From positions 6,067-70,066 of the forward strand of contig JBIOTN010000057.1 in assembly GCA_044866005.1 (NCBI GenBank): a stretch of DNA of 64,000 bases. The letters are read 5' to 3'. Below the pieces are notes generated by a model. The model was not told the DNA's origin and searched no databases. It saw only the letters and a program-made list of their open reading frames with translations. The position numbers and the translations under genes were made by a program. Below are positions 3,797 to 50,164 of the stretch, piece by piece. How positions within the stretch are numbered: position 1 is the first letter of the stretch; each line of letters starts with the position of its first letter. Origin of the DNA: Candidatus Rokuibacteriota bacterium. GTDB taxonomy: Bacteria; Methylomirabilota; Methylomirabilia; Rokubacteriales; DASRDR01.

Positions 3797-4674
3797 CGGC
3801 CTCCGCCGAAGATCGGGCGGAAGACCGCCGGATAGATGTCGTCGATGAAGAAGTGGACGAGGGCGCGGACGCCCACGTTCTTTCCCGTGGCGTCGTTGAT
3901 GGGGAGGACCGCTTCGAGCCCGAGCTCGATGAACTTCCCGGCCCAGATCAGCCCAGGGTTGATCGTCCCGGTCGTCTTCCCCCCATCGAGCGGCGTTTCG
4001 AAGGCGACCTCGACGACGGGAATGAGCCGGTTCAGCGGCCAGGGGATCCCCACGTCCTTCACGAAGCTCTGGAGATAGGGCAGGCTGTACTCGATCGCGA
4101 ACCCGTACGTCAGGGCGTTGCTCTCCGCGCTGGTCAGCGGGATCTCCGCGCCGAACACGCCGGTGAGGGCGAGCGGCTTGAGGACGCCCAGTCCATCGGG
4201 CAGGTCGCCGAGGCCCTTCCCGAAGAACAGGGTCGGGGCGAGCGTCGAGGTGGACGCGGCGCCGACGGCCTTGTCGCCGACGCCGCCGATCTCCCACTCC
4301 AGCCCGAGGGAGACGATCGCCTCGTGCGCCGCGCTCTTGAAGAGGGCGTACTTGACGCCGATCTCGGGGTTGGCGAAGCCGGACTCCGTGCCGCCCTCGG
4401 CGGAGTCGAGGATCCGGTACTCGCCGGAGATCGAGATCCCGACGTCGGGGGTGATGGTCTTGGCGAGCTCGGCGCCGATCTCCGTTTCCTTCCCTTCCGG
4501 CCCCTTGATGTGGACGACGGAGGGGAGCGCCAGCTCGTCGGCGACGAATGGGTCGTCGATGGTGAGGGTCGCCGGGAAGAAGCGCTTCCCGATGACGCCG
4601 TGGGCCCATGCCGGGGCCACGCCGAATGCCGAGATGAGGGCAAGCGACAGCAGGCCAGACGACAACCGTCTCAT
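3793..4674 (-). CDS. Secreted putative outer-membrane beta-barrel protein (family tentative)
   Basis: ORF 3793..4794 trimmed to the ATG at 4674 (MRRLSSGLLSLALISAFGVAPAWA signal peptide). Alternating amphipathic Gly/aromatic-rich strands throughout. Its stop overlaps the copC start by 4 nt. Confidence 0.6.
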   Translation of the reverse strand: MRRLSSGLLSLALISAFGVAPAWAHGVIGKRFFPATLTIDDPFVADELALPSVVHIKGPEGKETEIGAELAKTITPDVGISISGEYRILDSAEGGTESGFANPEIGVKYALFKSAAHEAIVSLGLEWEIGGVGDKAVGAASTSTLAPTLFFGKGLGDLPDGLGVLKPLALTGVFGAEIPLTSAESNALTYGFAIEYSLPYLQSFVKDVGIPWPLNRLIPVVEVAFETPLDGGKTTGTINPGLIWAGKFIELGLEAVLPINDATGKNVGVRALVHFFIDDIYPAVFRPIFGGGR

Positions 4675-4750: not shown

Positions 4751-5089
4751 CTACGCGAGGGCGAAGGGCGCTGAGGGCGGGGCGCGGGTCGCAACGGGCC
4801 GCCCGCTCGGCGTGGCCGCGAACGGCGTGGCCGCCGGTTCGGCGCGTTCCGGGGCGGGCCCCGCGCCGTGAAGAAGCCCGGTCGCGCCTATGGCCGCAGG
4901 CGCGTGGTCCGCCGTGGCGGCGAACCCACACCGGTCGTGGTCGTCCGTCTCGAAGAGGTGGTGGACGAAGTGGGGGCTCGCTTCGAGGAGCAGGATGGCC
5001 AGCCAGGCGCCGAGCGCGAGCGCCACGGCGCCACGGAGTGGAGTCGCTCGGACGGAGCCGATCATGACTGGGGACACCGGCACGTTCAT
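4751..5089 (-). CDS. Hypothetical small membrane protein with His-rich motif (SPHFVHHLFETDDHDRC)
   Basis: ORF 4751..5089. Codon-3 G/C in about 87% of codons (counted by eye), one hydrophobic helix, a His/Asp/Cys cluster. Heads the copper array. No clear SD. Confidence 0.4.
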   Translation of the reverse strand: MNVPVSPVMIGSVRATPLRGAVALALGAWLAILLLEASPHFVHHLFETDDHDRCGFAATADHAPAAIGATGLLHGAGPAPERAEPAATPFAATPSGRPVATRAPPSAPFALA

Positions 5090-21024: not shown

Positions 21025-22052
<1,028 letters not shown>

Positions 22053-22222
22053 CCCGGGCCGATACGCGTCGCCCCGGGTCGTCCTCGGTCGTCGGCGTCC
22101 CTCAACGTATGCGGCATACGCCTCGGGCCGCCTCCTCCCTGCGTCCTACCGGGGCTCGCGTCTCCGCCCGGCCGCGGTTCGATGCTCGCCCCTGTCCTGG
22201 GGCTGCTCGGCTCTCGGCCCGG
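22053..22222 (+). repeat. Intergenic structured repeat, copy A (with about 50-nt internal duplication/insertion at 22148..22197)
   Basis: Aligns with 39222..39340 and 50001..50119. Central hairpin at 22094..22132. Starts 1 nt after the korB stop. Confidence 0.8.
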
Positions 22223-22243
22223 CCTCGTTCCTGAGCCGCGACC

Positions 22244-30065: not shown

Positions 30066-31058
30066 ATGCAGCTGATTCCGGCGAACACGGGCTCCTACCC
30101 GCGGATTGGCGACACGCCGGAGGCGCAACGACACCGGCGCGCGTACGCGCAGCGGGAGCGCGGCGAGATCTCGGCGAGCGAGTGGCAGACGGTCGAGGAC
30201 GAGTCGACGCGCGAGATCGTGGCCGAGCAGCTCGCCGCCGGCGTCGAGCTGCCGACCGATGGGCTGGTGCGCTGGTACGACCCGATCTCGCACCTCGCCC
30301 GTCCGCTCGCGCACGTGACGATCGACGGCCTCCTGCGCTACTTCGACACGAACTTCTACTTCCGGCAGCCGGTCGTGAGCGGTCGGATCGCCCGGCGGGA
30401 GCCCACCCTCGCGCGCGAGTTCGAGGTGGCCCGCGACGCCGCCGCCCCGCGGCCGGTGAAGGCGGTCCTCACCGGGCCGTACAGCCTGGCCCGGGGCTCC
30501 ATCCTCGAGGCGGGCTACCGGGACCGCGACGCGCTCGTCCAGGCCTACGCCGAGGTGCTGGCGGCCGAGATCGCGGACCTGGCACGGGCCGGCGCGACCC
30601 TGATCCAGGTGGACGAGCCCTTCCTGCTCCAGCACCCCGAGGACGCGGACCTGGTCGCCCAGACCTTCGCGACGCTCGCGGCGGCGCGGGGCACGGCGCG
30701 GCTCGCCTGCTACACCTACTTCGGCGACGCGCTGCCGCTGTACGACGACCTCCAGGCGCTCCCCGTGGACGTGCTGGGCTTTGACTTCACGTACAGCCCG
30801 AAGCTCGCGGATCGGATCGCCGAGACCGGCAGCGACAAGACGCTCGGCCTGGGCCTGATCGACGGCCGCAACACCAAGCTGGAGACCCGCGAGACGGTGT
30901 ACCCGGTCCTGGACCGCGTCCTGCCGCGTCTGCGCGACAGTGCGTACCTCAACCCCTCCTGCGGTCTGGAGTTCCTGCCCCGGGACCGCGCCCGGGCGAA
31001 GCTCGAGTCGATGGCCCGGCTGGCTCGCGAATACGCCGGCGGGAGGAGCGTGAGATGA
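30066..31058 (+). CDS. Cobalamin-independent methionine synthase N-terminal-domain homologue (no Zn site)
   Basis: ORF 30066..31058. MetE-like (beta/alpha)8 pattern YPRIG...ELPTDGLVRWYD...IQVDEPFL. The His-x-Cys Zn motif is absent (LACYTYFGD). Confidence 0.75.
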   Translation: MQLIPANTGSYPRIGDTPEAQRHRRAYAQRERGEISASEWQTVEDESTREIVAEQLAAGVELPTDGLVRWYDPISHLARPLAHVTIDGLLRYFDTNFYFRQPVVSGRIARREPTLAREFEVARDAAAPRPVKAVLTGPYSLARGSILEAGYRDRDALVQAYAEVLAAEIADLARAGATLIQVDEPFLLQHPEDADLVAQTFATLAAARGTARLACYTYFGDALPLYDDLQALPVDVLGFDFTYSPKLADRIAETGSDKTLGLGLIDGRNTKLETRETVYPVLDRVLPRLRDSAYLNPSCGLEFLPRDRARAKLESMARLAREYAGGRSVR

Positions 31059-32056
31059 GCCGTCAGAAGCTCGAGAGCCTCGGCCTCACCCTGCCGATCC
31101 TGCCCACCTCCACGGTGGGGAGCTTTCCCAAGCCGCCGTACCTGACCGAGGCGCGGGCGAAGCTCGCCCGGAACGCCATCACCCGCGCCGAGCTCGACCG
31201 CCTGGAACGCCAGGCCACCGAGTTCTGGGTCCGGGCGCAGGAAGAGCTGGGCGTGGACGTGCTCGTGGACGGCGAGCAGTACCGGGGCGACATGGTCGCC
31301 TACTTCGCCGAGCTGATGGGTGGGTTCGCACCCGGCGGCCTCGTGCGCTCCTACGGCAACCGCTACTACCACAAGCCCGTGATCGTCGGCGAGGTGAAGT
31401 GGCCCGGGGCGATGACCGTCGCCTGGTGGCGCTTCACGCAGTCGCTGACGAGCCGGCCGGTGAAGGGCATGCTGACGGGGCCCTACACGATCATGGATTG
31501 GTCGTTCAACGACTACTACCCCGACCGCAAGAGCGCGTGCCTCGCGCTGGCCCGCGAGGTCCGGAAGGAGCTCGAGGCGCTGCTCGAAGCGGGGGCGAAG
31601 ATCATCCAGATCGACGAGCCCGCCCTCTCCGTGCGGCCGGACGAGCTCCCGTTCGCCGTCGACGCCATGCACGTCGTGGTGGAGGGCCTGCCCGCCTACT
31701 ACATCAGCCACGCGTGCTTCGGCGCCTTCGAGACCATCTACCCGGGGCTGCTCGACCTGCCCGTCGACAACCTCGACCTGGCCATCTCCCACAGTGCCCT
31801 GGACCTGCTCGCGATGTTCGCAAAGGATCCCTTCACCAAGGACCTCTCGCTCGGCGTGCTCGACGTCCACACCCACGCGGTCGAGTCGCCCGACGAGGTC
31901 AAGGCACGGATCATGCGCGGCGCCGGCGTGCTGCCGAAAGAGCGGATCTGGGTGGATCCGGACTGCGGCTTGAAGACCCGGACGGTGGACGAGGCCCGAG
32001 GAAAGCTGGCTTCCATGATGGCCGCGGTGCGGCAGGTGCGAGGCGCGCTGGCCTGA
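31055..32056 (+). CDS. metE: Cobalamin-independent methionine synthase catalytic (C-terminal-domain) homologue
   Basis: ORF 31055..32056. ATG overlaps the upstream stop (ATGA). PTSTVGSFPKP, IIQIDEPAL, Zn ligand pattern ISHACFG...E...VDPDCGLKTR. Confidence 0.8.
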   Translation: MSRQKLESLGLTLPILPTSTVGSFPKPPYLTEARAKLARNAITRAELDRLERQATEFWVRAQEELGVDVLVDGEQYRGDMVAYFAELMGGFAPGGLVRSYGNRYYHKPVIVGEVKWPGAMTVAWWRFTQSLTSRPVKGMLTGPYTIMDWSFNDYYPDRKSACLALAREVRKELEALLEAGAKIIQIDEPALSVRPDELPFAVDAMHVVVEGLPAYYISHACFGAFETIYPGLLDLPVDNLDLAISHSALDLLAMFAKDPFTKDLSLGVLDVHTHAVESPDEVKARIMRGAGVLPKERIWVDPDCGLKTRTVDEARGKLASMMAAVRQVRGALA

Positions 32057-37927: not shown

Positions 37928-38875
37928 GTGAGCGAGGCACCGGTGCGCGGCAACCCGGCAGCCACCGCCGAGTGGTCCATCGACGAGCACGGGGCGCTCA
38001 CGGAGACGCGCTTCCTGGACCTCCCCCTGGTCTCGCGCGGCAAGGTCCGGGACATGTACGACCTCGGCGAGCACCTCCTCATCGTCACCACCGACCGCAT
38101 CAGCGCATTCGACTGGGTCCTGCCGAACGGGATTCCCGAGAAGGGGAAGGTCCTCAACCAGCTCTCGGCCTTCTGGTTCGGCGTCCTCCAGGACGTCGTG
38201 CCGCACCACCTCGTGGCCACGGACGTCGGCGCCGACCGCCGCGTGCCCGCGCGCTATGGGTCCCTGCTCGCCGGCCGGTCGATGATCGTCCGGAAGGCCG
38301 AGGTCTTCCCCGTCGAGTGCGTGGCGCGCGGCTACCTCATCGGCTCGGGGTGGCGGGACTACCAGAAGACCGGAACGGTCTGCGGGCTCCGCCTGGCGCC
38401 GGGCCTCACGCTCGCCGCGCGGCTGCCGGAGGTCATCTTCACGCCCGCCACCAAGGCCCAGTCCGGCCACGACGAGAACATCGACTTCGAGCGCATGCGC
38501 GCGCTCCTCGGGGCCCCCGTGGCCGACGAGCTGCGGCGGCTCACGATCGAGCTCTACGGGCGGGGCACGGCGCTCGCCGGCCGCTGCGGGATCATCATCG
38601 CCGACACGAAGTTCGAGTTCGGTCGCCACGCCGGGCGCATCCATCTGGTGGACGAAGCGCTGACCCCCGACTCCTCGCGGTTCTGGCCCGCGGACGCGTA
38701 CGCCCCCGGGCAGTCGCCGCCGTCCTTCGACAAGCAGTTCGTCCGCGACTGGCTGGAGACGACGTCGTGGGACAAGAACTCGCCGCCGCCGCGACTGCCG
38801 CCCGGCATCGTCGCGCAGACGCGCGAGAAGTATATCGAGGCGCTCGTACGGTTGACGGGGCACGGTCTTGCGTGA
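37928..38875 (+). CDS. purC: Phosphoribosylaminoimidazole-succinocarboxamide (SAICAR) synthase
   Basis: ORF 37928..38875. GKVRDMYDLGEHLLIVTTDRISAFD, IADTKFEFG, DKQFVRDWL. Confidence 0.9.
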   Translation: MSEAPVRGNPAATAEWSIDEHGALTETRFLDLPLVSRGKVRDMYDLGEHLLIVTTDRISAFDWVLPNGIPEKGKVLNQLSAFWFGVLQDVVPHHLVATDVGADRRVPARYGSLLAGRSMIVRKAEVFPVECVARGYLIGSGWRDYQKTGTVCGLRLAPGLTLAARLPEVIFTPATKAQSGHDENIDFERMRALLGAPVADELRRLTIELYGRGTALAGRCGIIIADTKFEFGRHAGRIHLVDEALTPDSSRFWPADAYAPGQSPPSFDKQFVRDWLETTSWDKNSPPPRLPPGIVAQTREKYIEALVRLTGHGLA

Positions 38876-38893
38876 TCTCGCCCCAAGCGATTG

Positions 38894-38902
38894 TGCTATC
38901 AT
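38894..38902 (+). promoter_or_regulatory. Extended -10 element abutting the next start codon (leaderless candidate)
   Basis: TGcTATCAT. GTG 38909 and ATG 38912 lie 6-9 nt downstream, with no SD. Confidence 0.35.
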
Positions 38903-38911
38903 CCATCGGTG

Positions 38912-39217
38912 ATGGGATCGCTGCCGCCCTGTCAGGTCTACGGCATCAACATCCTCGTCAAGCTGCTCTCGGAAGCGCCACCCGGCGTGCGGCTCTACTG
39001 TCCCAAGGGCTCGCCGATCCGGTACGGCGTCGTGGTCGGACGCGGCGACGGCTTCGACGAGGGCGCCAACACGTTCCGCGAGATGCCGCCCATGGAGGCC
39101 GTCGTCGCCTTCGAGGAGACGGCCGAGGAAGTCGAGGGACACTACTTCTACGTGAGCGGCGAAGAGTTCCGGGTCCTGCGGCTGGATTCGGTGATCCTCG
39201 CCTTCCCCCGCGAGTAG
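38912..39217 (+). CDS. Hypothetical 101-aa protein with a GroES/Cpn10-like sequence pattern (tentative)
   Basis: ORF 38891..39217 (TTG) trimmed to ATG 38912. INILVKLL..GVRLY...RYGVVVGRGDG...AVVAFEE...EEFRVLRLDSVILAF parallels GroES (VIVK..GIVL..RGEVLAVGNG..IVIFND..EEVLIMSESDILAI). Confidence 0.45.
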   Translation: MGSLPPCQVYGINILVKLLSEAPPGVRLYCPKGSPIRYGVVVGRGDGFDEGANTFREMPPMEAVVAFEETAEEVEGHYFYVSGEEFRVLRLDSVILAFPRE

Positions 39218-39221
39218 GCGG

Positions 39222-39340
39222 CCGTGCCGACAACCGTCGCATCCGGGTGTCCTCGGTCCTCGCCGAGCCTCAACGTACAACTGCGTACGCCTCGGCTCGG
39301 CTCGTCCCTGCGTCCTAGGGCTGCTCGGTTCTCGGCACGC
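39222..39340 (+). repeat. Intergenic structured repeat, copy B
   Basis: Aligns with copies A and C. Central hairpin at 39262..39301 with a perfect 8-bp outer stem. Confidence 0.8.
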
Positions 39341-39471
39341 CCCTAGGAGAGGGGGCTCGCGCGCTGGCTGAGGAGTCTCCGCCACGGCTGCGGCCCGTCG
39401 AGGCGTTCCCCGCGACGATCGACGGCCGCGAGGTAATCTGCCTCCGGGACCCCTCGGCGGTCGCCGAGGCG

Positions 39472-40605
39472 GTGCTCAGCGTGCCGCGGCCGGTCGTCGA
39501 GATCCTGGCCCTCCTCGACGGCACCCGCTCGATCGCCGACGTCCAGGCCGAAATCATGCGCCGTCACGGGGCGCTCGTGGCCCGCGACCAGATCGCCGCG
39601 CTCGTCGAGACGCTCGACCGGCACCTGTTCCTCGAAGGCGCGCGGCTCGAGGCCGAGCGCGAGCGGCTGGCCGGGCTGTTCCGGTCGAGCCCCGTGCGGC
39701 CGGCGGCCCACGCCGGAAAGGCGTACGCGGGCGACGCGGAGGCGCTGGCGGCCGAGCTGGCGGGGTTCTTCGTCCACCCCGATGGGCCCGGCGCGATCGG
39801 CCCGCCGGGGGTCCCGCGCCTCCGCGGGCTCGTCGCGCCGCACATCGACTTCCGGCGCGGGGGACCGGCGTACGCCTGGGCTTACAAGGCCGTCGCCGAG
39901 GCCTGCCAGGCCGACTGCTTCATCGTGCTCGGCACCGCGCACGCCGGCCTCGACGGTCACCCCTTCGCGGCGACGCGGAAGCCCTACGACACCCCCTTCG
40001 GCCCGCTCGCCGTCGACGACGAGGTGCTGGAGGCCGTCATCCGGCGGGCGCCGGGCGACCTCTTCGCCGCCGAGCTGGCGCACCGGTCGGAGCACTCGAT
40101 CGAGTTCCAGGCCGTCTGCCTCCGGTACCTCGCCCGGGCCCGCGGCGAGGCGCGCATCGTGCCGATCCTCGCGAGCTTCGCTCACGAGGCGATCGCGACG
40201 GGAGGCGACCCCGCGACGGAGCCCGCGATCGCCGGCGTGCTCGACGCCGTGCGCGCGGCGATCGCGACGGTCCCGCGGCGCTACTGCGTCGTCGCGGGGG
40301 CCGACCTCGCCCACGTCGGACCGCGCTTCGGGGACCCGACGCCGCTGGCGCCGGCCGACTTCGCGCGCGTCGAGGCGGAGGACCGGGCGCTCCTGTCGCT
40401 CGTGGCGAGCGTGGATCCGGGTGGCTTCCTCACCACCGTCGCCCGCGACGGGGACCGGCGGCGGATCTGCGGGCTGTCGCCGATCTACGCGCTGCTGGCC
40501 GTCCTCCCCGGCGGGCGAGGCCGGCTCCTCCACTACGGCCAGTGGCCCGACCCCCACGGCACCGTGACCTTCGCCAGCGTCGCGTTCGAGGAGGCGGGGC
40601 CGTGA
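39472..40605 (+). CDS. MEMO1/AmmeMemoRadiSam-B family protein with PqqD/RRE-like N-terminal domain (true start probably upstream, CTG 39364)
   Basis: ORF 39472..40605 (GTG). Memo motifs PAAHAGKAYAGDAEAL, LVAPHIDFRRGGPAYAWAY, VLGTAHAG, EHSIEFQ, ADLAHVG. N-terminus PVVEILALLDGTRSIADVQAEIMRRHG...IAALVETLDRHLFLEG is PqqD-like. The open frame extends to 39319 with conserved-looking beta strands but only CTG codons. Confidence 0.75.
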   Translation: MLSVPRPVVEILALLDGTRSIADVQAEIMRRHGALVARDQIAALVETLDRHLFLEGARLEAERERLAGLFRSSPVRPAAHAGKAYAGDAEALAAELAGFFVHPDGPGAIGPPGVPRLRGLVAPHIDFRRGGPAYAWAYKAVAEACQADCFIVLGTAHAGLDGHPFAATRKPYDTPFGPLAVDDEVLEAVIRRAPGDLFAAELAHRSEHSIEFQAVCLRYLARARGEARIVPILASFAHEAIATGGDPATEPAIAGVLDAVRAAIATVPRRYCVVAGADLAHVGPRFGDPTPLAPADFARVEAEDRALLSLVASVDPGGFLTTVARDGDRRRICGLSPIYALLAVLPGGRGRLLHYGQWPDPHGTVTFASVAFEEAGP

Positions 40606-40633
40606 CGGGCGGGCGACCGGGCCGGAGGGCCGG

Positions 40634-41119
40634 GTGACGGCCGGCGGCCCGTCGAGCGCGTGGGCCCTGCCACCCGGCACGTTCCGGATCGACCGGGAGG
40701 GCGTCTGGCGTCACGAGGGTCAGGAGGTCACGCACCCCGGCGTGGTCCGGAATCTCTACGCGAACCTCCGGGTCGACGCCGACGGGCACTACCTCCAGGT
40801 CGGCCCGGCCCGGGTCCCGGTGGACGTGGAGGACGCGCCCTTCGTCGTCACCCGTGTGGAACCGACGGCCGATCGCGACGATACGCCGCGGCCCCTACGA
40901 CTTTACCTGAGCGACGGCAGCGACGAGGCGCTCGATCCGACCGGGGTGGTCATCGGGGTCCGTCAGACGCCCTACTGCCGGGTGAAGGACGGTCGCTTCA
41001 AGGCGCGGTTCTCCCTGCCGGCCTGGCTCCAGCTCGCCGCCTTCGTCGAGGAGGAGCCGGAGACGGGCGCGGTCGCGCTCGTCCTGGGCGACCGCCGGAT
41101 TCGCCTCCCGCGAGGGTGA
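40634..41119 (+). CDS. DUF1285-family protein
   Basis: ORF 40634..41119. FRIDREGVWRHEGQEVTHPGVVRNLYANLRVDADGHYLQVG...VDVEDAPFVV. Confidence 0.7.
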   Translation: MTAGGPSSAWALPPGTFRIDREGVWRHEGQEVTHPGVVRNLYANLRVDADGHYLQVGPARVPVDVEDAPFVVTRVEPTADRDDTPRPLRLYLSDGSDEALDPTGVVIGVRQTPYCRVKDGRFKARFSLPAWLQLAAFVEEEPETGAVALVLGDRRIRLPRG

Positions 41120-41121
41120 GC

Positions 41122-41664
41122 GTGGCGCGACCCGCCGGCCTCGGCATCGTCGCGGCCCTCGGCCTCGTGGCGGCGGTCGGGCTCGGGCCCGCCACGCCCC
41201 GCGCGGCGCCACCCGAGCCCGAGCCCGCGCCCGAGGTCGGGCGCGAGGCGCCGGACTTCACCCTCCCCGACCTGGACGGCGGGCCCGTCCGCCTCGCCGG
41301 GTTCCGGGGCCGGCAGGCGGTCCTCGTCAACTTCTGGGCGACCTGGTGCGTGCCGTGCCGGGAGGAGATGCCGATGCTCGACCGGCTCTGGCGCCAGCGC
41401 CGCGACACGCTCGTCGTCCTCGGGGTGAGCCTCGACACGGCCAGCCCCGCGCGCGTCCGCGCATTCGTCCGGGAGGTGGGCGCCGGCTTCCCGATCCTGC
41501 GCGATCCGGACCAGACCGTGGCGAGGCGCTACCGGCTGCGCGGCGTCCCGTCCTCCTTCCTCGTCGATCGGGGCGGCGTGATCCGGTACCGGGAGGTGGG
41601 ATACCGGGACTGGACCGATGCCGAGTCGCGCCGGATGGTCGAGGAGACCCTCCGGGCGAGGTGA
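41122..41664 (+). CDS. TlpA/ResA-like periplasmic thiol:disulfide oxidoreductase
   Basis: 3' part of ORF 40660..41664 from GTG 41122. Signal anchor. APDFTLPDLDG..V.L..F.G..VLVNFWATWCVPCREEMP. Confidence 0.85.
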   Translation: MARPAGLGIVAALGLVAAVGLGPATPRAAPPEPEPAPEVGREAPDFTLPDLDGGPVRLAGFRGRQAVLVNFWATWCVPCREEMPMLDRLWRQRRDTLVVLGVSLDTASPARVRAFVREVGAGFPILRDPDQTVARRYRLRGVPSSFLVDRGGVIRYREVGYRDWTDAESRRMVEETLRAR

Positions 41665-41915
41665 GGCGTGGGGGGGCCTGTTCCCGCCGGCGGGTCCGGG
41701 GTATCCTCGGGCGGGCTCGCCGCTGCATCGATCCCGAGGTGAACCGCGCCGGGGTGAGCCAGGACGACTGCCGAGCCGCCCGGTGCTCGGGCGGGCGACG
41801 AGGGCGGGCACGCGATGATCTCGTTCAACCTGACGCGGACGACGGCGCGCGCCGAGGAGCTCCTGGCGCGGGCGCGGGGGACCGGCGCCTGAGGCGCCGC
41901 CCCGGGGAGGGACGG

Positions 41916-42926
41916 ATGCGGAGGCACGGCAGACGGGCGTTCGTGGGAGCGGCGGCCCTCCTGGTCGCCGCGGGCGCCGCGCTGGCGACCGGCTGGCCGG
42001 GGACCGCCCGGGCGCAGGGCGCGATCCAGATCCGGCTCGGCCTGGCGGCCAACCCGGGCTCGCTGCTCTTCATCACGGCCGAGGACTACGCCCGGCGGGT
42101 GAACGACGGGCTCAAGGGCCGGGTGGAGGTCAAGGTCTTCCCGTCGAGCCAGCTGGGGACCGACGAGCAGATGATCAAGGGCGTCCGGGCGGGGACGCTC
42201 GAGATGTTCGTGCCTTCCACGATCATGAGCACCGTCGAGCCGAAGTACGGCGTGTTCGAGATGCCGTATCTGGTGAAGGACTGGAGCCACATCCGGCGGC
42301 TGGCCGCCAGCGCGGAGATCAAGCGCGCCCTCTTCGAGCCGCTGCCGGCGAAGGGGGTCCGGGCCCTGGCGCTCTGGGAGAACGGGTTCCGCCACATCAC
42401 GAACAACATCCGGCCCATCGTGAAGCCCGACGACCTCAAGGGGGTCAAGCTCCGCGTGCCCTCCGGCGTCTGGCGGGTCAAGATGTTCAAGCTCTACGGC
42501 GCCAACCCCACCCCGCTGGCCTACGCCGAGGTCTACTCCGCGCTCCAGTCCGGCGTGATGGATGGCCAGGAGAACCCGTTCGTGCAGATCTGGTCGGGCC
42601 GCTTCCACGAGGTGCAGAAGTACCTGTCGCTCACCGGGCACGTCTACTCGCCCGCCTACCCCGTGGTGGCGGAGAAGTGGTGGCAGTCGCTGCCGGCGGA
42701 CGTGCGGGCGGCCCTGGAGCGCGCGGCCGTCGAGACGCAGGAGGTCGCGTGGCGGGAAGGGGAGCGGCTGGACAAGGAGTTGCTCGGCAAGCTCGCGGCG
42801 ACGCTCAAGGTGAACGAAGCCGACAAGGCCGCCTTCATCCACGCCTCCAAGCCGGTCTACGAGGAGTTCGCCAGGGAGGTGCCCGGCGGAGGGGAGCTGA
42901 TCAGGCTCTTCCAGTCCCTCATGTGA
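41916..42926 (+). CDS. dctP: TRAP transporter substrate-binding protein (DctP family)
   Basis: 3' part of ORF 41346..42926 from ATG 41916 (GGGGAGGGA SD). Tat/Sec-like signal. FPSSQLGTDEQMIKGVRAGTLEM, WENGFRHITNN, MDGQENP. Confidence 0.85.
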   Translation: MRRHGRRAFVGAAALLVAAGAALATGWPGTARAQGAIQIRLGLAANPGSLLFITAEDYARRVNDGLKGRVEVKVFPSSQLGTDEQMIKGVRAGTLEMFVPSTIMSTVEPKYGVFEMPYLVKDWSHIRRLAASAEIKRALFEPLPAKGVRALALWENGFRHITNNIRPIVKPDDLKGVKLRVPSGVWRVKMFKLYGANPTPLAYAEVYSALQSGVMDGQENPFVQIWSGRFHEVQKYLSLTGHVYSPAYPVVAEKWWQSLPADVRAALERAAVETQEVAWREGERLDKELLGKLAATLKVNEADKAAFIHASKPVYEEFAREVPGGGELIRLFQSLM

Positions 42927-42937
42927 GCGGCGGCCGG

Positions 42938-42964
42938 CCCGACACGCGTCGCCCCGGGTCGTCC
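42938..42964 (+). repeat. Truncated 5' fragment of the intergenic repeat (copy D)
   Basis: CGACACGCGTCGCCCCGGGTCGTCC matches copy A 22060..22084 with 1 mismatch, then diverges. Confidence 0.5.
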
Positions 42965-42975
42965 GGCACTCGCGC

Positions 42976-43485
42976 ATGACGCGCGCGCTTCGCCTCGTCG
43001 TCCTGCTGTTCGAGTGGTGGAGCGTCCTGCTCCTCGTCCTCATGGTCCTGATCGTCGTCGTGGGCGTCTTCTACCGCTACGTCCTCGACGCGTCGCTCGC
43101 CTGGTACGACGAGTTCGCCTCCTACCTGCTGGTCTGGCTGACCTTCTACGGCGCCGTGGTCGTCGCCTACCGCCGGCGCCACATCAGCTTCGACGTCCTC
43201 GTGGAGTGGTTCGGGCCGGCCGGCCGCCGCGCGCTGGGCATCGTGGCGGAGTGCCTGGTTCTCGCCTTCCAGGTTGTGCTCGCCTACTACGGCTGGGTCG
43301 CGCTGGACGCCATGGCGTTCGACATCGCCGTGTCCATCCCCTGGGTCCGCATGAGCTGGATCTACAGCGTCCTGCCCATCTCCGGCGCCCTGATGCTCCT
43401 GATCAGCGCGGTCCGCCTGGCGGACCTCGTCCGCGGGACGGAGGAGGTCCGGCCCGCCGCGCCCGTCCCGCGCGCGGCCGAGTGA
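42976..43485 (+). CDS. dctQ: TRAP transporter small permease (DctQ)
   Basis: ORF 42976..43485. Four TM helices. Position between dctP and dctM. Confidence 0.8.
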   Translation: MTRALRLVVLLFEWWSVLLLVLMVLIVVVGVFYRYVLDASLAWYDEFASYLLVWLTFYGAVVVAYRRRHISFDVLVEWFGPAGRRALGIVAECLVLAFQVVLAYYGWVALDAMAFDIAVSIPWVRMSWIYSVLPISGALMLLISAVRLADLVRGTEEVRPAAPVPRAAE

Positions 43486-44762
43486 TGGAAGCCCTCATCA
43501 TCGGGCTCCTCGTCCTGCTCGTCCTGCTCAACGTGCCGATCGCGTGGGCCCTCTGCCTCACGACCATCACCTTCGTCCTGGCGAAGGGCACGGCGCCCCT
43601 CACCACGGTGCCCCTGACCCTCTTCGCCGGCTCCTCCAGCTTCCCCCTGCTGGCGATCCCGCTCTTCATCCTGGCCGGCGGGCTCATGGAGACGGGCGGC
43701 ATCTCGCTGCGGCTGGTGAATTTCGCGCAGAGCCTGGTCGGCTTCATCCGGGGTGGACTGGCCATGGTGACGGTCGTGGCGACCATGATCCAGAGCGAGA
43801 TCTCGGGATCGTCGGTCGCGGACGCCGCGGCGATCGGCCGCGTGATGATCCCGGCGATGGCGCGGCGCGGCTACCCGCGCGCGCTCTCCGCCGCGATCGT
43901 CTCCAACGCCGCCTCCGCCGCGATCCTCATCCCGCCCTCGGTCCCCATGATCATCTACGCCTGGATGGCGGAGGCCTCCGTCGCCAGGCTCTTCATCGCC
44001 GGGTTCGTTCCCGGCTTCGTCGCGTGCGTCGCGATGATGGGGCTCTGTTACTACTACGCGCGGGTCCTGGACCTGCCCGTGGAGCAGGCCTTCAGCCTCC
44101 GGGAGGTCGGACGGACCGCGGTCGCCGCGGCCTGGGCCATGGTGGTTCCGGCCGTCATCTGGGGCGGCATCTTCGGCGGCGTGGCGACGGCCACGGAGGT
44201 GGCCGCCCTGGCGGCCGTGGCCGCGCTCGTGGTCGGCGTCTTCGTGTACCGCGAGATCCCGCTGGGAGGTCTCCGGCCGATCCTCGTGGACTCCATGATG
44301 CAGACCGCGATGGTCATGGTCATCGTCGCGGCGTCGGCCGTCCTCGGCTGGTACCTGACCAACGAGCAGCTCCCGCAGAAGTTCGCCCGGCTGATCCTCG
44401 AGACCACGCAGAACCGCTACCTGATCCTCTTCTTCCTCAACATCTTCTTCTTCGTCATCGGGATGTTCCTCCACTCCGCCGCCGCGATCCTGCTCGTCGT
44501 GCCGGTGGTGATGCCGCTCGTGCGGCAGGTGGGCATCGACCCCATCCACTTCGGGGTGATCGTGACCATCAACCTCGGCGTCGGCCAGCAGACCCCTCCC
44601 GTCGCCAGCGTGCTCTTCACGACCTCGGCGATCGCCGGGCTGTCGTTCTGGGAAGTGTTCCGGCGCGGTTGGCCGTTCACGCTCGTGCTCGCGCTCGTCA
44701 CGCTGCTCATCACCTACGTCCCGGTGCTCTCGCTCGGCCTCGTCCGCCTCGTCTATCCCTGA
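43485..44762 (+). CDS. dctM: TRAP transporter large permease (DctM)
   Basis: 3' part of ORF 43014..44762. ATG 43485 overlaps the dctQ stop. LLAIPLFILAGGLMETGGIS, EISGSSVADAAAIG. Confidence 0.9.
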   Translation: MEALIIGLLVLLVLLNVPIAWALCLTTITFVLAKGTAPLTTVPLTLFAGSSSFPLLAIPLFILAGGLMETGGISLRLVNFAQSLVGFIRGGLAMVTVVATMIQSEISGSSVADAAAIGRVMIPAMARRGYPRALSAAIVSNAASAAILIPPSVPMIIYAWMAEASVARLFIAGFVPGFVACVAMMGLCYYYARVLDLPVEQAFSLREVGRTAVAAAWAMVVPAVIWGGIFGGVATATEVAALAAVAALVVGVFVYREIPLGGLRPILVDSMMQTAMVMVIVAASAVLGWYLTNEQLPQKFARLILETTQNRYLILFFLNIFFFVIGMFLHSAAAILLVVPVVMPLVRQVGIDPIHFGVIVTINLGVGQQTPPVASVLFTTSAIAGLSFWEVFRRGWPFTLVLALVTLLITYVPVLSLGLVRLVYP

Positions 44763-45997
44763 TCCGGCGCGGACGCGAGCTCGGGAAAGCGCGCCGCCGC
44801 GGTGCGGCGCCAGGCGGCGAGGAGGGCGAGGACGGTGGCGAGCCCCAGGCCACCGCCGGTCAGGCAGGCGAACGGGACACCGACAGCCTCGCTCAGGGCG
44901 CCGAAGAAGAGCGACCCGATGGGCGTGACGCCGGCGAAGACCAGGGCGTAGAGGCTCATCACCCGGCCGCGGAGCGCGTCCGGCGCGGTGACCTGCAGGA
45001 TGGTGTTCGAGGTCCCCAGGAAGACGATCTGGGCGAAGCCGACGATCACGAGCACCGGGACGGCGACGGCGAACTGCCGGACGGCGGCGAGGGCCGCCGT
45101 GGCCACGGCCATCGCGGCCGCCGGCACGAAGAGCGCCATGAGCGGCGGCCGGCCGCGTCCCAGCGCGGCCAGGGCGAGGGCCCCGGCCAGCGCGCCCCCG
45201 CCGAGCGCGGACATGAGGAAGCCGAAGCCGTCCGCGTCCTGGTGGAGGACGTCCCGGGCCAGCAGGGGCACGAGCACGCCGTAGTTGAGGACGAAGACGC
45301 TCACCGCGAGGACCAGGCCCAGGACCAGCGCGACGCGCGGCGTGGTGACCGCGTAGCGGAGCCCGACCCGGATCTCCTCGCCCATCGTGGCGTGGCGGGG
45401 CCGGGGGGCACCTCCGGCCGGGATGGCGGCCAGCGCCAGGATCACGGCCACGAAGCTCAACCCGTTGAGCAGGAACGCCGCCGCCACGCCGTAGCGTGCC
45501 ACCAGGAGCCCGGCCGCCGCCGGCCCCACGATCCGCGCCGCGTTGAACACGGCCGAGTTCAGCGCGATCGCGTTGACGAGGTCGTCCTTGCCCACCAGCT
45601 CCACGACGTAGGACTGGCGGGCCGGCATGTCGAGCGTCGTGACCACGCCGAAGACGAGCGCCAGGAGGGCGACGTGCCAGTACGCGACCCGGCCGCTCCA
45701 GACGAGCGCGGCCAGCGCGAGAGCCTGCAGGAGCAGCGCGGTCTGCGTCGCCAGGAGCACGCGGCGCTTGGGCAGCCGGTCGGCCACCGCGCCCGCGGGG
45801 AGGGAGAGGAGGAGGATGGGCGTGAACTGGAGCGCGCTCACGAGGCCGAGCCGGAACGGCGAGCCGGTGAGCTCCAGGACCAGCCAGGACTGGCCCATCG
45901 ACTGCATCCACGTCCCGACGAGGGAGACGAGCTGTCCCGTCCAGAACAGCCGGAAGTCCCGGTGGCCGAGCGCGCGGAGCGCGGCGGGGAGCGGCAT
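44753..45997 (-). CDS. MFS transporter (EntS/DUF894-like)
   Basis: ORF 44753..45997. GGAGGA SD. FRLFWTGQLVSLVGTWMQ, GAVADRLPKRRVLL, 12 TM helices. Confidence 0.85.
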   Translation of the reverse strand: MPLPAALRALGHRDFRLFWTGQLVSLVGTWMQSMGQSWLVLELTGSPFRLGLVSALQFTPILLLSLPAGAVADRLPKRRVLLATQTALLLQALALAALVWSGRVAYWHVALLALVFGVVTTLDMPARQSYVVELVGKDDLVNAIALNSAVFNAARIVGPAAAGLLVARYGVAAAFLLNGLSFVAVILALAAIPAGGAPRPRHATMGEEIRVGLRYAVTTPRVALVLGLVLAVSVFVLNYGVLVPLLARDVLHQDADGFGFLMSALGGGALAGALALAALGRGRPPLMALFVPAAAMAVATAALAAVRQFAVAVPVLVIVGFAQIVFLGTSNTILQVTAPDALRGRVMSLYALVFAGVTPIGSLFFGALSEAVGVPFACLTGGGLGLATVLALLAAWRRTAAARFPELASAPDQG

Positions 45998-46114
45998 CCA
46001 CGTCCTCCGGTCGGCCCCCGGGCCCGACGGCGGCCGCGTGCCCCGCCGAGACGCCGCCGCCGCCGGGGCGACCGGCGGCGGCTCGGGACGGCGGGCGCCG
46101 GCGCGCGCCGGCGC

Positions 46115-47533
46115 TCAGCCGCGCAGGTGCAGCACCACGAGCTTGAGCTCGGTCATCTCCTCCACCGCGTAACGCGGCCCCTCCTTGCCGAAGCCGGACT
46201 CCTTGAGGCCGCCGTAGGGCATGAGGTCCGCCCGCCACTGCGGCCCCCAGTTGACGTGGAGGTTCCCGGCCTGGACCTCGCGGGCGAACTTCATCGCGTG
46301 CTCCAGGCTCTCCGTGAAGATGGCGGCGGAGAGCCCGTAGTTCGTGTCATTGGCGAGCGCGATCGCCTGGTCGATGTCGTCGAAGGGCGTGACCGCCACG
46401 GCCGGACCGAACAGCTCGTCGGCCGAGATCCGCATCTCCGGCTTCACGTCGGCCACGATCGTCGGGGCGTGGAGCGCGCCCTGGCGCTCGCCGCCGGTGA
46501 CGAGCCGGGCGCCGCTCGAGATCGCCTCACGGATCCACTCCTCCACGCGGGCCGCGTCCTTCTCGCGGATCATGGGCCCCATCTTGACCCGCTCGTCGAG
46601 CTGATTGCCGGTGGTGAGCGCCTCGACCTTGGGCTTGAGCGTGGAGAGGAAATCCCCGTAGATCTTGCCGGCGGCGAGGACCCGCTGGGTCGAGATGCAG
46701 ACCTGCCCGGCGTTCGCGTACCCGGTCGCCGCGACCGCCTCCGCGACCTTGGTGAGGTCGGCGTCCGGCATGACGATGACCGGCGCGTTCGAGCCGAGCT
46801 CCATCGTGACCTTCTTGATCCCGGCCGTCTTGCAGATCCGCTCGCCGACGTCACGGCTCCCCGTGAAGGTGATCTTCCGCACGCGCGGGTCGGCGGCGAG
46901 CAGGTCGCCGATCTCCCCGCCGGGGCCCGTCAGGCACTGGATGCCCTCGGCCGGGAGGCCGGCCTCCAGGAGGATCTCGGTCAGCTTGAGGGCGGAGAGC
47001 GGCGTGTCGGTCGCGGGCTTGACGATGACGGCGTTGCCGCCCGCGATCGCGGGCCCGACCTTGTGGCAGACCAGGTTCAGCGGGAAGTTGAACGGGCTGA
47101 TCGCGACCACGACGCCGCAGGGGACGCGGAGGGTGAAGGCGAGCCGGCCGGCGGCGCCCGGCGCGCCGTCCACCGGCACCGTCTCGCCGTGGATCCGCTT
47201 GGCCTCCTCCGCCGAGCCCAGGATCGTCTCCACGGCCCGGTTCGCCTCGAGCCGCCCCTCGGCGAGGATCTTGCCCTCCTCCATGCTGATGGTCCGTCCG
47301 AGGTCCTCCTGCCGCGCCGCGATCAGGTCGGCGGCCCTCCGGAGGATCTGGAAGCGGTCGTATCCGGAGAGCTTCGCCATGGTCCGGGCGCCGCGCACGG
47401 CGCTCTCCAGCGCGCGCTCGACGTCCCCGCGGTCGGCGCGGGGCACGGTGTCGATCACGCTGCGGTCGTAGGGATTCTCGACGGGGATCTTCTCGGCCTT
47501 GTCGATCCACTGGCCGGCGACGTACATGCGCAT
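46115..47533 (-). CDS. NAD(P)-dependent aldehyde dehydrogenase
   Basis: ORF 46115..47626 trimmed to ATG 47533 (AAGGAGGAG SD). ELGSNAP, catalytic Cys in AGQVCISTQR, FGPAV, ESGFGKEG. Confidence 0.9.
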   Translation of the reverse strand: MRMYVAGQWIDKAEKIPVENPYDRSVIDTVPRADRGDVERALESAVRGARTMAKLSGYDRFQILRRAADLIAARQEDLGRTISMEEGKILAEGRLEANRAVETILGSAEEAKRIHGETVPVDGAPGAAGRLAFTLRVPCGVVVAISPFNFPLNLVCHKVGPAIAGGNAVIVKPATDTPLSALKLTEILLEAGLPAEGIQCLTGPGGEIGDLLAADPRVRKITFTGSRDVGERICKTAGIKKVTMELGSNAPVIVMPDADLTKVAEAVAATGYANAGQVCISTQRVLAAGKIYGDFLSTLKPKVEALTTGNQLDERVKMGPMIREKDAARVEEWIREAISSGARLVTGGERQGALHAPTIVADVKPEMRISADELFGPAVAVTPFDDIDQAIALANDTNYGLSAAIFTESLEHAMKFAREVQAGNLHVNWGPQWRADLMPYGGLKESGFGKEGPRYAVEEMTELKLVVLHLRG

Positions 47534-47599
47534 GTCCGGACTCCTCCTTGCGGCGGTCGCGCGATGGGGGACGGGACCCGGGGAATCGGCCCTCGTCCG

Positions 47600-47628
47600 A
47601 TTATCGCCCCGCGCCGGGCCGCCCACAA
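47600..47628 (-). promoter_or_regulatory. Sigma70-like promoter of the aldehyde dehydrogenase gene
   Basis: On the minus strand: TTGTGG (47628..47623), 17 nt, GATAAT (47605..47600). Confidence 0.4.
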
Positions 47629-47638
47629 GGCCGGCCCG

Positions 47639-48430
47639 TCAGGCCCGCGACCCTCCTACGGCCGCCAGCGCGTCGAGCACGGCGGCGTGGATCCGGCCGT
47701 TCGAGGCGAGCACACCCGGCCCCTCGAGCCGCCAGGTGCCGCCGCGGACGTCGGTGAGGCGACCGCCTGCCTCCTGCACGATCAGCCCGCCGGCCGCCAT
47801 GTCCCAGGGGCCGAGGCGGAGCTCCCAGTAGCCGTCGAAGCGGCCGGCGGCGACGTAGCAGAGGTCGAGGACCGCCGAGCCGATGCGCCGGACGCCGCGC
47901 GTGCGGAGGGACAGGGCGGAGTACTCGGGCAAGTTCGTCTGGGAGGCCGTCCGGATGTCGTTCGGGAACCCCGTGGCGAGGAGGCTCTCGTCCAGGGTCG
48001 GCGTCTCGGAGACGTGGATGGCCTGGCCGTTGAGCGTGGCGCCCCCGCCGCGCTCGGCCAGGAAGCACTCGTCGAGGTTCGGGTCGTAGGCGACGCCGAG
48101 CACGACCTCGCCGGCGCGCTCGAGGGCGACGGAGACCGCGAAGACGGGCACCCCGTGGGCGTAGTTGGTGGTCCCGTCGAGCGGGTCGATGAGCCACCGG
48201 TAGTCCGACCGCCCGGGCTGGGCGCCGCTCTCTTCCGCCAGGATCGCGTGATCGGGGAACGCCTGGCGGAGCCGGCCGACGATGAGGCTCTCCGCGCGCT
48301 GGTCCATCTCCGTGACGAGGTTCGTCGGGCTGCCCTTGTAGCGGATCCGTCGCGTCCCGCCGAGCGCGTCGCGGAGGAGCGTGCCGGCGCCGCGCGCGGC
48401 CTCCACGGCGACGGAAAGGTACGGGCCCAC
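47639..48430 (-). CDS. suhB: Inositol monophosphatase family protein (SuhB-like)
   Basis: ORF 47639..48430. LAEESG, WLIDPLDGTTNYAHG, GSAVLDLCYVAAGRFDGYWE. Confidence 0.9.
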   Translation of the reverse strand: MGPYLSVAVEAARGAGTLLRDALGGTRRIRYKGSPTNLVTEMDQRAESLIVGRLRQAFPDHAILAEESGAQPGRSDYRWLIDPLDGTTNYAHGVPVFAVSVALERAGEVVLGVAYDPNLDECFLAERGGGATLNGQAIHVSETPTLDESLLATGFPNDIRTASQTNLPEYSALSLRTRGVRRIGSAVLDLCYVAAGRFDGYWELRLGPWDMAAGGLIVQEAGGRLTDVRGGTWRLEGPGVLASNGRIHAAVLDALAAVGGSRA

Positions 48431-48524
48431 GCGGCCGAGCCTAGCACACGCCTCCTCGCAGCGTCGATTCCGCCACCGCGATGGCGCCGGCCGGCCCGGG
48501 GCGTCCCGGCGAGGGCCCGACGCC

Positions 48525-48554
48525 TTGACCCTCGGCAGTGGCGGGTGTTATAAC
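48525..48554 (+). promoter_or_regulatory. Sigma70-like promoter with extended -10 directly before a GTG start (leaderless candidate)
   Basis: TTGACC (48525..48530), 18 nt, TGtTATAAC (-10 at 48549..48554). GTG 48561 is 6 nt downstream. Confidence 0.5.
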
Positions 48555-48560
48555 CCGACG

Positions 48561-49052
48561 GTGGCGAGGCGCGAGAGCAAGCCCGTGCGCAGCGCGTCCA
48601 CGGACACGCCGCCGACCCGATCGGTGAAGGCCGCGGTCCCCGAGGACCGGCCCATCCTCGTCGTGACGGGGTGCGTCGGGCGCAGCTCGCCGGCTGCCGG
48701 CGGCTGGGGGTACGTCATCTGTTACCCCACCGGCCAGGAGGTCGAGGCCGGCGGGATGGCGGCGGAGACGACGGCCGCCCGGATGGCCTTGACGGCCGTC
48801 GTCCGGGCGCTGGAGCGCCTCGGACCCGCCGAGCGCGGGCCGGTGCGGGTGGTCACGTCCAGCCAGCCCACCGTCGACACCGCCGCGGGCCGGCTGCCGC
48901 GCCGCGGGGACCTGGACCTCTGGACCCACCTCGACGGCCTCGCGCGCGACCGCCGGATCATCTGGGAATGGGAGCCGGACGAGACCATGTACTTCCAGGA
49001 GCGCGCGGCCGAGCTGGCCCAGCTCGCCGTGAAACGCGGCCGCGCGGACTGA
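48561..49052 (+). CDS. RNase HI-fold protein lacking the DEDD catalytic residues
   Basis: 3' part of ORF 48381..49052 from GTG 48561. Gap-free local alignments to E. coli RNase HI: TGCVGRSSPAAGGWGYVI vs TDGSCLGNPGPGGYGAIL; TTAARMALTAVVRALERL vs TTNNRMELMAAIVALEAL; VTSSQP vs STDSQY; IIWEWE vs IKWEWV; QERAAELA vs NERCDELA. Confidence 0.7.
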   Translation: MARRESKPVRSASTDTPPTRSVKAAVPEDRPILVVTGCVGRSSPAAGGWGYVICYPTGQEVEAGGMAAETTAARMALTAVVRALERLGPAERGPVRVVTSSQPTVDTAAGRLPRRGDLDLWTHLDGLARDRRIIWEWEPDETMYFQERAAELAQLAVKRGRAD

Positions 49053-49062
49053 GGCTCGCCGG

Positions 49063-49998: not shown

Positions 49999-50000
49999 GC

Positions 50001-50119: not shown

Positions 50120-50164
50120 TCCCATGCCACCCGGGCCGGAACGTCCCTCGCGCAGGGCCGCCGG

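Follow-up and report, generated by a model that had tools for sequence, protein, structure and literature searches.

What kind of object is the hairpin-forming repeat that recurs directly behind stop codons in the DNA of a soil population of Candidatus Rokuibacteriota bacterium: a regulatory RNA encoded at the ends of genes, or a piece of mobile DNA that settles there? Here we examined this question in a stretch of 64,000 nucleotides (nt) (GenBank assembly GCA_044866005.1, contig JBIOTN010000057.1, positions 6,067 to 70,066 of the forward strand; hereafter the window), in which a preliminary description made from the letters alone had noticed the repeat, and in related loci from other genomes (their numbers begin with L). 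We show that this repeat of about 120 bases is mobile, that it enters at a target motif which becomes duplicated around it, that its stems covary and that it is restricted to one lineage. We read it as a small mobile element and not as a proven regulatory RNA, and we consider it probable that the repeat forms a lineage-specific family of small non-autonomous mobile DNA elements of the Methylomirabilota/Rokubacteria, resembling MITEs (miniature inverted-repeat transposable elements), REPINs (paired repetitive extragenic palindromic, or REP, sequences) and mycobacterial interspersed repetitive units (MIRUs). The repeat is previously undescribed, and our literature search found no paper on repeats in Rokubacteria.

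A foldback repeat restricted to one lineage

Repeat finding in the window, whose G+C content is 70-78%, recovered three full copies (A to C) and one 5' fragment (D) of a single family, far above chance (repeat families D1, D2 and D10). These are the places at which they had first been noticed, and two further procedures agreed. A covariance model built from 79 distinct related copies and run over the window gave exactly three matches (E = 1e-24 to 1e-25; Table 1), the next best having E=0.3. The pattern of the 5' arm matched five times, against 0.15 matches expected, one of the five (36888, three mismatches) being at chance level, and the pattern of the 3' arm matched three times against 0.00 expected. 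The flanking genes named in the preliminary description, korB-like, panE and dctP, were likewise recognised with Pfam. The whole element, about 119-120 nt, folds back on itself into a single long and imperfect hairpin: the outermost 9-20 nt of either side pair with each other, and the central hairpin is no more than the tip.

When one genome of each of 185,579 species was searched with a 27-position core pattern, all 103 stretches found lay in ten metagenome-assembled genomes (MAGs), and no other species genome matched. Every one of these MAGs with a named taxon belongs to Candidatus Methylomirabilota/Rokubacteria; the other four are labelled just 'uncultured bacterium' (CAZDYT01 with 33 stretches, CAYQDR01 with 29, CAZXPE01 with 3 and CAYFIG01 with 2). 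DASYUM01 has 25 stretches, CAVPSB01 has 7, and four further MAGs have one each. The covariance model run over 678 kb of these loci gave 132 matches, many of them cut by contig ends. A scan with such a model had been proposed at the outset as a check, and both the bias toward stop codons and the covariation of the stems are present in the family. Three divergent copies were found in L106, a metagenome contig of 345 kb (Ga0184637_10000001; 849-976, 4166-4294 and 4864-5015) from a lineage of lower G+C (about 0.60-0.67 over the copies); the core motifs are retained in them, and so is the CTAG at the 5' foot. Rfam gave no match in the window at the gathering threshold and none at E<=1 in three copy-bearing loci, and a distant blastn search of the PLSDB plasmids gave no match either.

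The multiplicity of the element is also seen in soil metagenomes, where contig depth over copy C is 25-85x that of its flanks. The 3' tail of this copy is common to other copies, since depth there is about 9x that of the flanks (bin 50132-50158) and the contigs of other copies cover 50065-50157. Soil-metagenome contigs of related strains part from the window sequence exactly after 39216/39217, the TAG before copy B. Short-read MAG contigs start or end inside the element at L001, L003, L005, L006, L018, L032, L051, L056, L065, L069, L070, L074, L081 and L087, and the element is a systematic cause of assembly breaks in the Rokubacteria phylum.

Insertion at stop-containing motifs

The claim that each copy starts just after a stop codon holds in the window, with gaps of 0, 4, 2 and 7 nt for A, B, C and D, and in the family at large. 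Of 107 copies, 94 have a stop triplet (TAG 51, TGA 40, TAA 3) in the 21 nt that precede the 5' arm, against 23% of random windows of the same DNA. The flanks were typed with a codon log-odds model that had been trained on this DNA. Coding on the strand of the element was seen for the upstream flank in 76 of 97 cases, and 60 of these 76 have the stop ending 27-38 nt before the core, equivalent to 0-10 nt before the 5' arm. The flanking genes are co-directional in 67 of 76 typed cases.

Two kinds of target can be told apart. The distance of TAG is fixed, being 29-30 nt in 45 of the 51 copies concerned, and 41 of the 51 have a C in front of it, the genome-wide share being 13%. In the 766 kb made up of the loci and the window, CTAG is about six-fold under-represented (0.41 per kb against the 2.6 expected from base composition). 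In the same DNA TAG is preceded by G in 73% of its occurrences, and a sizeable share of the CTAG sites are element boundaries. The TGA type is co-oriented with the upstream gene 32:1 and the CTAG type 28:8; where a CTAG copy is reverse-oriented, a minus-strand gene has its stop in the CTAG that closes the far end of the unit. RTGA, the overlap of a start and a stop codon, found no support as a strict target, A or G preceding TGA in 28 of 40 copies against about 58% genome-wide.

The comparison of orthologous sites, found by blast of the flanks against the window and the loci, gave filled and empty counterparts in L063 vs window 31055, L009 vs L096, L096 vs L009, L025 vs L088, L088 vs L025, and L084 vs L103. 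The clearest pair is the first. In L063 (MAG CAYQDR01) the element and its tail stand between two MetE-like genes, the filled site reading ...CCCGATGAGC, element and tail, ...CCAGTGAGTCGT..., while the empty site of the window reads ...GAGATGAGCCGT.... The window genes concerned, at 30066-31058 and 31055-32056, are adjacent MetE-like genes with a cobalamin-independent methionine synthase domain and an ATGA overlap. An origin of the outer stem from a hairpin already present in the target is ruled out, this empty site being a 4-nt gene overlap without spare sequence. By these comparisons, the copies stand after stop codons as a result of insertion at stop-containing motifs, which are duplicated in the process. 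In the pair L025 and L088 the element occupies an intergenic CCTAG some 20 nt past the real stop; the motif and not translation is recognised.

Two further observations concern orthologous sites. In the pair formed by L084:1240-1367 and L103:~2320-2400 the empty site keeps 20 nt (GAGCCGAGGGCCGCGCGCCG) between stop and start, 13 of which equal the element end; to judge by its letters, this remnant looks like the scar of an internal deletion and like the solo arm of the window. One orthologous gene end is found in three loci, with the stop TGA in L017 and L062 (DASYUM01) and TAG in L023 (CAZDYT01), each followed by a different arm subfamily, which represents either independent insertions at one gene end or converted copies.

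The duplicated motif can be followed on the right side of the element. The CTAG subfamilies carry one of two conserved 3' tails (A and B) that end in ...GCTTCAAGGACCCTAG or ...GAACAAGCGTCCTAG, so that the unit is bracketed by CTAG. The tails of some subfamilies measure 8-57 bp and lie on the 3' side. The tail of the tailed TGA subfamily has GGAGGG, AGAGGG or GCAGGG as its last letters and is followed by a copy of the last bases of the upstream gene, stop codon included; the Shine-Dalgarno-like GGAGGG/GCAGGG falls about 7-9 nt before the duplicated start codon. The duplication is exactly 11 nt long in window copy C, L060, L077, L046 and L008, and an exact downstream match to the 5' flank reaches 11 nt or more in 8 of 84 copies, the corresponding count in the controls being 1 of 84. 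Window copies A and B have the motif on both sides in a short form (CTGA...CTGA and TAGG...TAGG), and the CTGA pattern of copy A is also seen in related loci. Site-specific (att-type) exchange is ruled out for copy C, where the right junction repeats target and not element sequence. The predicted empty allele of copy C (GAGTCNGCNGGNTGATCCGNCTNGGNGC) had 0 matches in the metagenome scan; the metagenome loci found through PanE were at best 46-60% identical and therefore contained no orthologous junction for this copy, although one of them, L106, supplied the three divergent copies.

Mobility is also indicated by tandem and internally deleted copies and by two other small palindromes that have inserted into the element. 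The second palindrome (~57 nt, ...GCGCGCCCCGGACGGCGGGGCCCCAGCCCCGCGACGTCCGGAGGCGCGC...) occurs at L024:873-908, L030:1898-1933, L083:231-266, L091:443-478, L062:7157-7192 and L019:1-36, all six in MAG DASYUM01 and none in the window. It lies inside the main element in the five instances read, four of them in the apical loop right after CCTCAACGT and that of L062 in the 3' half, while L019:1-36 lies at a contig end. The third (~55 nt, CATCTCGGCCGGGACGCGCNCGGCCTGCGGCCGCGCGGCCGTCCCGNCCTCTGG) occupies conserved GCGTCCT^C sites of the main element in L009:~4590-4650, L020, L021, L066 and L060:6460-6575 (minus strand), the last being a symmetric insertion in both arms; again there is none in the window. 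The extra 50 nt of copy A had been taken for a partial internal duplication. They are instead a 22-nt spacer followed by a second 3' arm of a different subfamily (22194-22222), which makes copy A a composite or a partial second copy.

Table 1. Positions in the window of the repeat copies, their junctions and neighbouring genes.
Feature	Position	Strand	Remarks
Stop TGA left of copy A	22050-22052		TPP-enzyme (korB-like) gene
Copy A, full foldback	22053-22171	+	Covariance-model match 22049-22176, 114 bits, E=4e-24; arms of subfamily CGCGTCGCCCCGGGTC / ACCGGGGCTCGCG
Appendix of copy A	22172-22222	+	Second 3' arm of generic type, GTCCTGGGGCTGCTCGGCTCTCGGCCCGG; exact arm match; two overlapping D1 matches
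CTGA repeat right of copy A	22231-22234	+	First CTGA, 22049-22052, holds the stop codon
FAD-linked oxidase (glcD-like) gene right of copy A	22244 (ATG)		Pfam
Empty site	31055-31058	+	ATGA stop/start overlap of two MetE-like genes; orthologous junction filled in L063
Stop TAG left of copy B	39215-39217
TAGG flanks of copy B	39215-39218 and 39344-39347		First one holds the stop TAG
Copy B, full foldback without tail	39222-39339	+	Covariance-model match 39217-39345, 115.6 bits; upstream an open reading frame of 108 amino acids without Pfam match, downstream a Memo-like gene
Stop TGA of dctP	42924-42926		Pfam DctP
Fragment D, solo 5' arm	42934-42964	+	31 nt, subfamily of copy A; D10, 94% identical to the 5' arm of copy A
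Start ATG of dctQ	42976		Pfam DctQ
Left copy of 11-nt direct duplication CCGCCGGGTGA	49988-49998	+	End of panE including TGA stop
Open frame across copy C	49995-50168	+	57 codons, beginning with a GTG that overlaps the panE stop and closing with a TGA that overlaps the ABC-transporter start; both overlaps are -4
Stop TGA of panE	49996-49998		PanE/ApbA by Pfam
Copy C, full foldback	50001-50119	+	Covariance-model match 49997-50124, 120.3 bits, E=1.5e-25
3' tail of copy C	50120-50157	+	38 nt, ends in GCAGGG (Shine-Dalgarno-like); aligned by eye
Right copy of duplication CCGCCGGGTGA	50158-50168	+	Contains, at 50165, the GTG with which the ABC-transporter gene (50165-51988) starts

Pairing in the foldback and the case for an RNA

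The alignment of the 79 distinct copies was used to determine how the foldback varies. RNAalifold proposed 31 pairs, 15 of which show two-sided (compensatory) changes. Paired cells amount to 96.9%, against 82.2% in column shuffles and 35-50% with slid partners, and double-sided changes number 316 against 103 in shuffles (0 of 500 shuffles reach 316). The compensatory changes of the preliminary description are thus real, but they are not confined to the central hairpin and extend over the whole element; the functional unit, too, is the entire foldback of about 119 nt, with or without a 3' tail. The outer stem and the 8-bp inner stem vary freely yet remain paired. Between them lies a pyrimidine-rich core invariant in all aligned copies, consisting of 5' GCGTCCTCGGTCGTCG, 3' CTCCTCCCTGCGTCCT and the CUCAA/CCUCG loop below the tip, in the order GCGTCCTCGGTCGTCG ... 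CCTCAACG-loop-CGCCTC ... CTCCTCCCTGCGTCCT, and these invariant blocks oppose each other as pyrimidine-pyrimidine mismatches. In the divergent copies of L106, GCGTCCTCGG is replaced by (G/T)CGTTCTCGG and CTGCGTCCT by CTCGGGCCT; with these replacements that part of the mismatched core is more paired, including two G-T pairs on the plus strand.

The covariation had been taken as the signature of selection on RNA structure, a reading that the composition of the pairs does not support. Of 2449 pair cells, 2358 are Watson-Crick, 16 are G-U, 28 are A-C, which would be G-U if the other strand were read, and 47 are mismatches of other kinds, so that G-U pairs are rarer than plain mismatches (16 vs 75). 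This is the pattern of a DNA palindrome rather than of a wobble-tolerant RNA. Because the pairs are nearly all Watson-Crick and compensatory changes are also common in the DNA hairpins of REPINs (PMC3116915), the covariation does not argue for RNA. Both strands fold stably as DNA (z-scores -2.8 to -6.8), and the minus strand folds better than the mRNA-sense strand.

A cis-acting RNA could nevertheless be the selected function, either as a stabiliser of mRNA 3' ends, as a terminator lacking a U-tract or as a 'ribosome termination structure' that tunes re-initiation, with mobility being just the means of spread. Ribosome termination structures are stable stem-loops immediately after the stop codon within operons (PMC7518266), and the site immediately 3' of stops fits this concept; the same likeness extends to the REP-type mRNA 3' hairpins (Higgins et al. 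1988, as cited in PMC3116915). Both of these are defined by function and position, unlike the present repeat, which is a mobile sequence family. The hairpins are strong when folded as RNA (z-scores -2.5 to -7.3), the TGA subfamily is almost always co-oriented with the upstream gene, the Shine-Dalgarno-like motif of the tail is correctly spaced from the downstream start, and the core is invariant between species, with unpaired CCUCC-rich loops that could pair with Shine-Dalgarno sequences. The element, sought with a consensus copy, is also present in soil and sediment metatranscriptome assemblies, which carry no strand information and may include DNA carry-over. At L095:7420-7660, contigs from RNA libraries cover the whole hairpin at high summed depth (runs X8 and X11, soil, oligo-dT RNA-Seq; X9 and X12, metatranscriptomes) and stop at the element borders because the flanks differ between copies; no RNA runs were found for the window's own locus.

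Against such a role stand the scarcity of G-U pairs and the better fold of the strand that is not the mRNA, together with the occurrence of CTAG-type copies in both orientations (28:8), the use in L025 of an intergenic CTAG that is no stop, and the presence of many copies within operons, where termination would do harm. The terminator reading in particular fails, as the copies have no U-tract and are G+C-rich after the 3' arm. A classical intrinsic (Rho-independent) terminator is rejected because the terminator/promoter scan called nothing at copies B, D and C, no terminator-like site being called at any copy in 38500-51000. Weighing both sides, we hold it unlikely that an RNA is the selected function of the family.

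Relation to known elements and the nature of the mobilising enzyme

If the repeat is a mobile DNA element, it should be asked to which known class it belongs. The early suggestion of a REP-like element or bacterial interspersed mosaic element points to the right neighbourhood, that of dispersed intergenic hairpin repeats, but the conserved blocks do not form an inverted REP doublet. As with REPINs and their REP-associated tyrosine transposases (RAYTs; Bertels and Rainey 2011, PMC3116915), we are dealing with a non-coding extragenic palindrome of about 100 nt that folds into one hairpin, is present in tens to hundreds of copies, some in tandem clusters, has conserved blocks parted by stretches constrained only by pairing with common compensatory changes, and has no enzyme gene adjacent to most copies. 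Unlike in REPINs, the blocks GCGTCCTCGGTCGTCG and CTCCTCCCTGCGTCCT are not reverse complements, the conserved core is internally mismatched and the termini are variable, the abutment to stop codons is tight, duplications flank the element, and both phylum (Methylomirabilota) and sequence are different.

The family could still be REPIN-like in the stricter sense, being mobilised by a single-copy RAYT (an HUH tyrosine transposase) or by a TnpA of the IS200/IS605 type that recognises a single-stranded DNA hairpin and the tetranucleotide at its foot. A REPIN-like size, the compensatory stem changes known from REPINs (PMC3116915), the conserved CTAG abutting the 5' foot, the conservation of structure rather than terminal sequence, and the lack of an enzyme gene beside the copies, as expected of a single-copy RAYT, all agree with this. 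Mismatches in hairpins give hairpin-binding enzymes strand specificity, and the invariant mismatches of the core are of this kind. The objections are that the two conserved blocks are not inverted copies of each other, pyrimidines predominating in both on the same strand, that clear flanking duplications of 4-11 nt or more are present, whereas to our knowledge HUH transposition (IS200/IS605, IS91) makes none, and that no RAYT was seen in the 766 kb, which is a weak test. Mobilisation by such an enzyme seems to us quite improbable.

Like MIRUs, the element is a small mobile intercistronic repeat of a high-G+C lineage that sits at gene junctions and start codons, is mostly oriented with the operon, occurs in tandem and in a subset of copies has an internal frame with -4 overlaps, so that polycistronic expression can survive. 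MIRUs measure 40-100 bp and are not known to be long foldbacks; in the present family, by contrast, the covarying hairpin and the invariant core dominate, the coupled frame is found in some copies only, and a CTAG-specific subfamily occurs in both orientations. One may propose, on the MIRU model, that a short open frame through the element is essential and that ribosomes are handed across the insertion through -4 overlaps to both neighbours. The frame across copy C, with GTGA overlaps at both ends, suggests as much; 8 of 13 comparable RTGA copies are likewise framed and a 57-nt nested insert preserves the frame. MIRUs are in addition described as inserting at start codons with a coupled frame at -4 spacing (PMC12548453). 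Nevertheless the element leaves two of its three frames open in any case, and near the end of the tail two frames close, so that 8 of 13 is, by our estimate, only weakly above the one-third expected. A start codon at the junction is lacking in CTAG-type and hairpin-only copies and in copy A (CTGA), and the frame used differs between subfamilies, with no sign of peptide conservation. An essential frame is hence very improbable indeed.

The likeness to MITEs derived from transposons with DDE enzymes lies in the small size (below 300 bp), the absence of coding capacity, arms whose complementarity lets them serve as inverted repeats, direct repeats in the flanks, the use of CTAG as target by one subfamily, and internally deleted and nested copies. 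The IS5 group makes 4-bp CTAG-type duplications. The IS630/Tc1 family targets TA, preferentially within CTAG (Tenzen and Ohtsubo 1991, as cited in PMC2170065). What sets the family apart from such MITEs is that conservation is lowest at the termini, that the two ends are asymmetric in tailed copies and that the duplication has no fixed length (4 to 11 nt or more). The hairpin-only copies do have complementary ends (for example CGCCGAGCCGA...TCGGCTCGGCG in L084), whereas in tailed copies the end on the side of the duplication has no inverted match. Integron attC sites conserve terminal core sites (GTTRRRY and its inverse) around a variable centre; an attC site was rejected here, the centre being invariant and the ends variable, with no GTTRRRY at the ends and housekeeping genes rather than cassettes in the flanks. 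The element therefore departs from REPIN, MITE and MIRU alike, having no REP doublet, no fixed-length duplication or conserved termini and no universal coupled frame. In our analysis it would act like REPINs and MITEs as a non-autonomous foldback, and like MIRUs in colonising cistron junctions without breaking operons.

Several results weigh against a family of non-autonomous mobile elements and should be set out together. No transposase or recombinase adjoins the copies among the open reading frames of the 64-kb window and the 8-kb pieces of MAG contigs, as had been noted for the window at first sight; an all-against-all comparison of 429 open reading frames of the loci gave only orthologous pairs and no multi-copy protein, and the reading frames between inverted pairs of copies (L010, L001) are ordinary genes. 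Nor does the 766 kb contain an autonomous insertion sequence with the same ends. The filled and empty sites come from different species with flanks 75-93% identical, and for this reason the exact pre-insertion sequences are inferred. The duplication varies in length: many copies repeat just CTAG, at least five repeat 11 nt and four repeat 14-33 nt, while in many hairpin-only copies none is visible. No single known chemistry fits all of this. Finally, the termini are the most variable part of the element and the interior is invariant, the opposite of ordinary MITEs, and this invariance of the core across species-level MAGs could also signal a host-level function.

With these points in mind, the reading as mobile DNA can be put into a model. 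The basic unit is a foldback of about 119 bp whose outer and apical stems may change as long as they stay complementary. It enters at a stop-containing motif, either CTAG (rare in these genomes of 72% G+C) or a TGA that closes a gene or belongs to a stop/start overlap, and the motif is then present on both sides. Both neighbours stay intact in this way, the upstream one retaining its stop and the downstream one its start, and the tail of the tailed TGA subfamily supplies a Shine-Dalgarno-like sequence ahead of the downstream start. Such insertions would be nearly harmless and would therefore persist between cistrons, with selection presumably keeping only those at gene ends. The conserved mismatched core and the required foldback point to recognition by a trans-acting enzyme, which probably works on folded single-stranded or cruciform DNA. 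Once in place, a hairpin just 3' of the stops of a polycistronic mRNA may have secondary effects on mRNA stability or translational coupling.

As to the enzyme, HUH enzymes (RAYT, IS200/IS605) would fit the structure-based recognition and the foot tetranucleotide and not the duplications, whereas DDE enzymes would fit the CTAG brackets but neither the variability of the termini and of the duplication length nor the asymmetry of the tailed ends. Copying may alternatively start at the stop-codon (5'-arm) end and finish imprecisely, by a rolling circle, by one-ended single-strand transposition or by RNA-templated insertion in the manner of short interspersed nuclear elements. Such copying would explain the duplication lengths of 4-33 nt (mode 11), the variable 3' tails, the asymmetry between the ends of tailed copies, solo 5' arms such as that at 42934-42964 and the pieces of 5' arm that follow full copies, as well as the invariant, strand-asymmetric mismatched core that folds better on the minus strand. 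We offer this only as a speculative idea with little probability; if true, the element, with a tail that rebuilds a ribosome-binding site, would found a class of its own among bacterial mobile elements, a new and 'operon-compatible' one.

For the study of the Rokubacteria, which are abundant in soil and uncultured, the family matters in practical ways. It breaks short-read assemblies and can be mis-annotated as C-terminal extensions or small open reading frames, while the 27-nt pattern, lineage-specific among the species genomes searched, provides a marker. A more general caution is that stem covariation alone does not identify an RNA, the pairing here being Watson-Crick as expected of a DNA foldback. 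The pattern of conservation, with an invariant mismatched core and covarying termini, points to a structure-specific enzyme or binding partner worth seeking. The family shows how a mobile element can colonise a gene-dense, operon-rich genome of 72% G+C at almost no cost.

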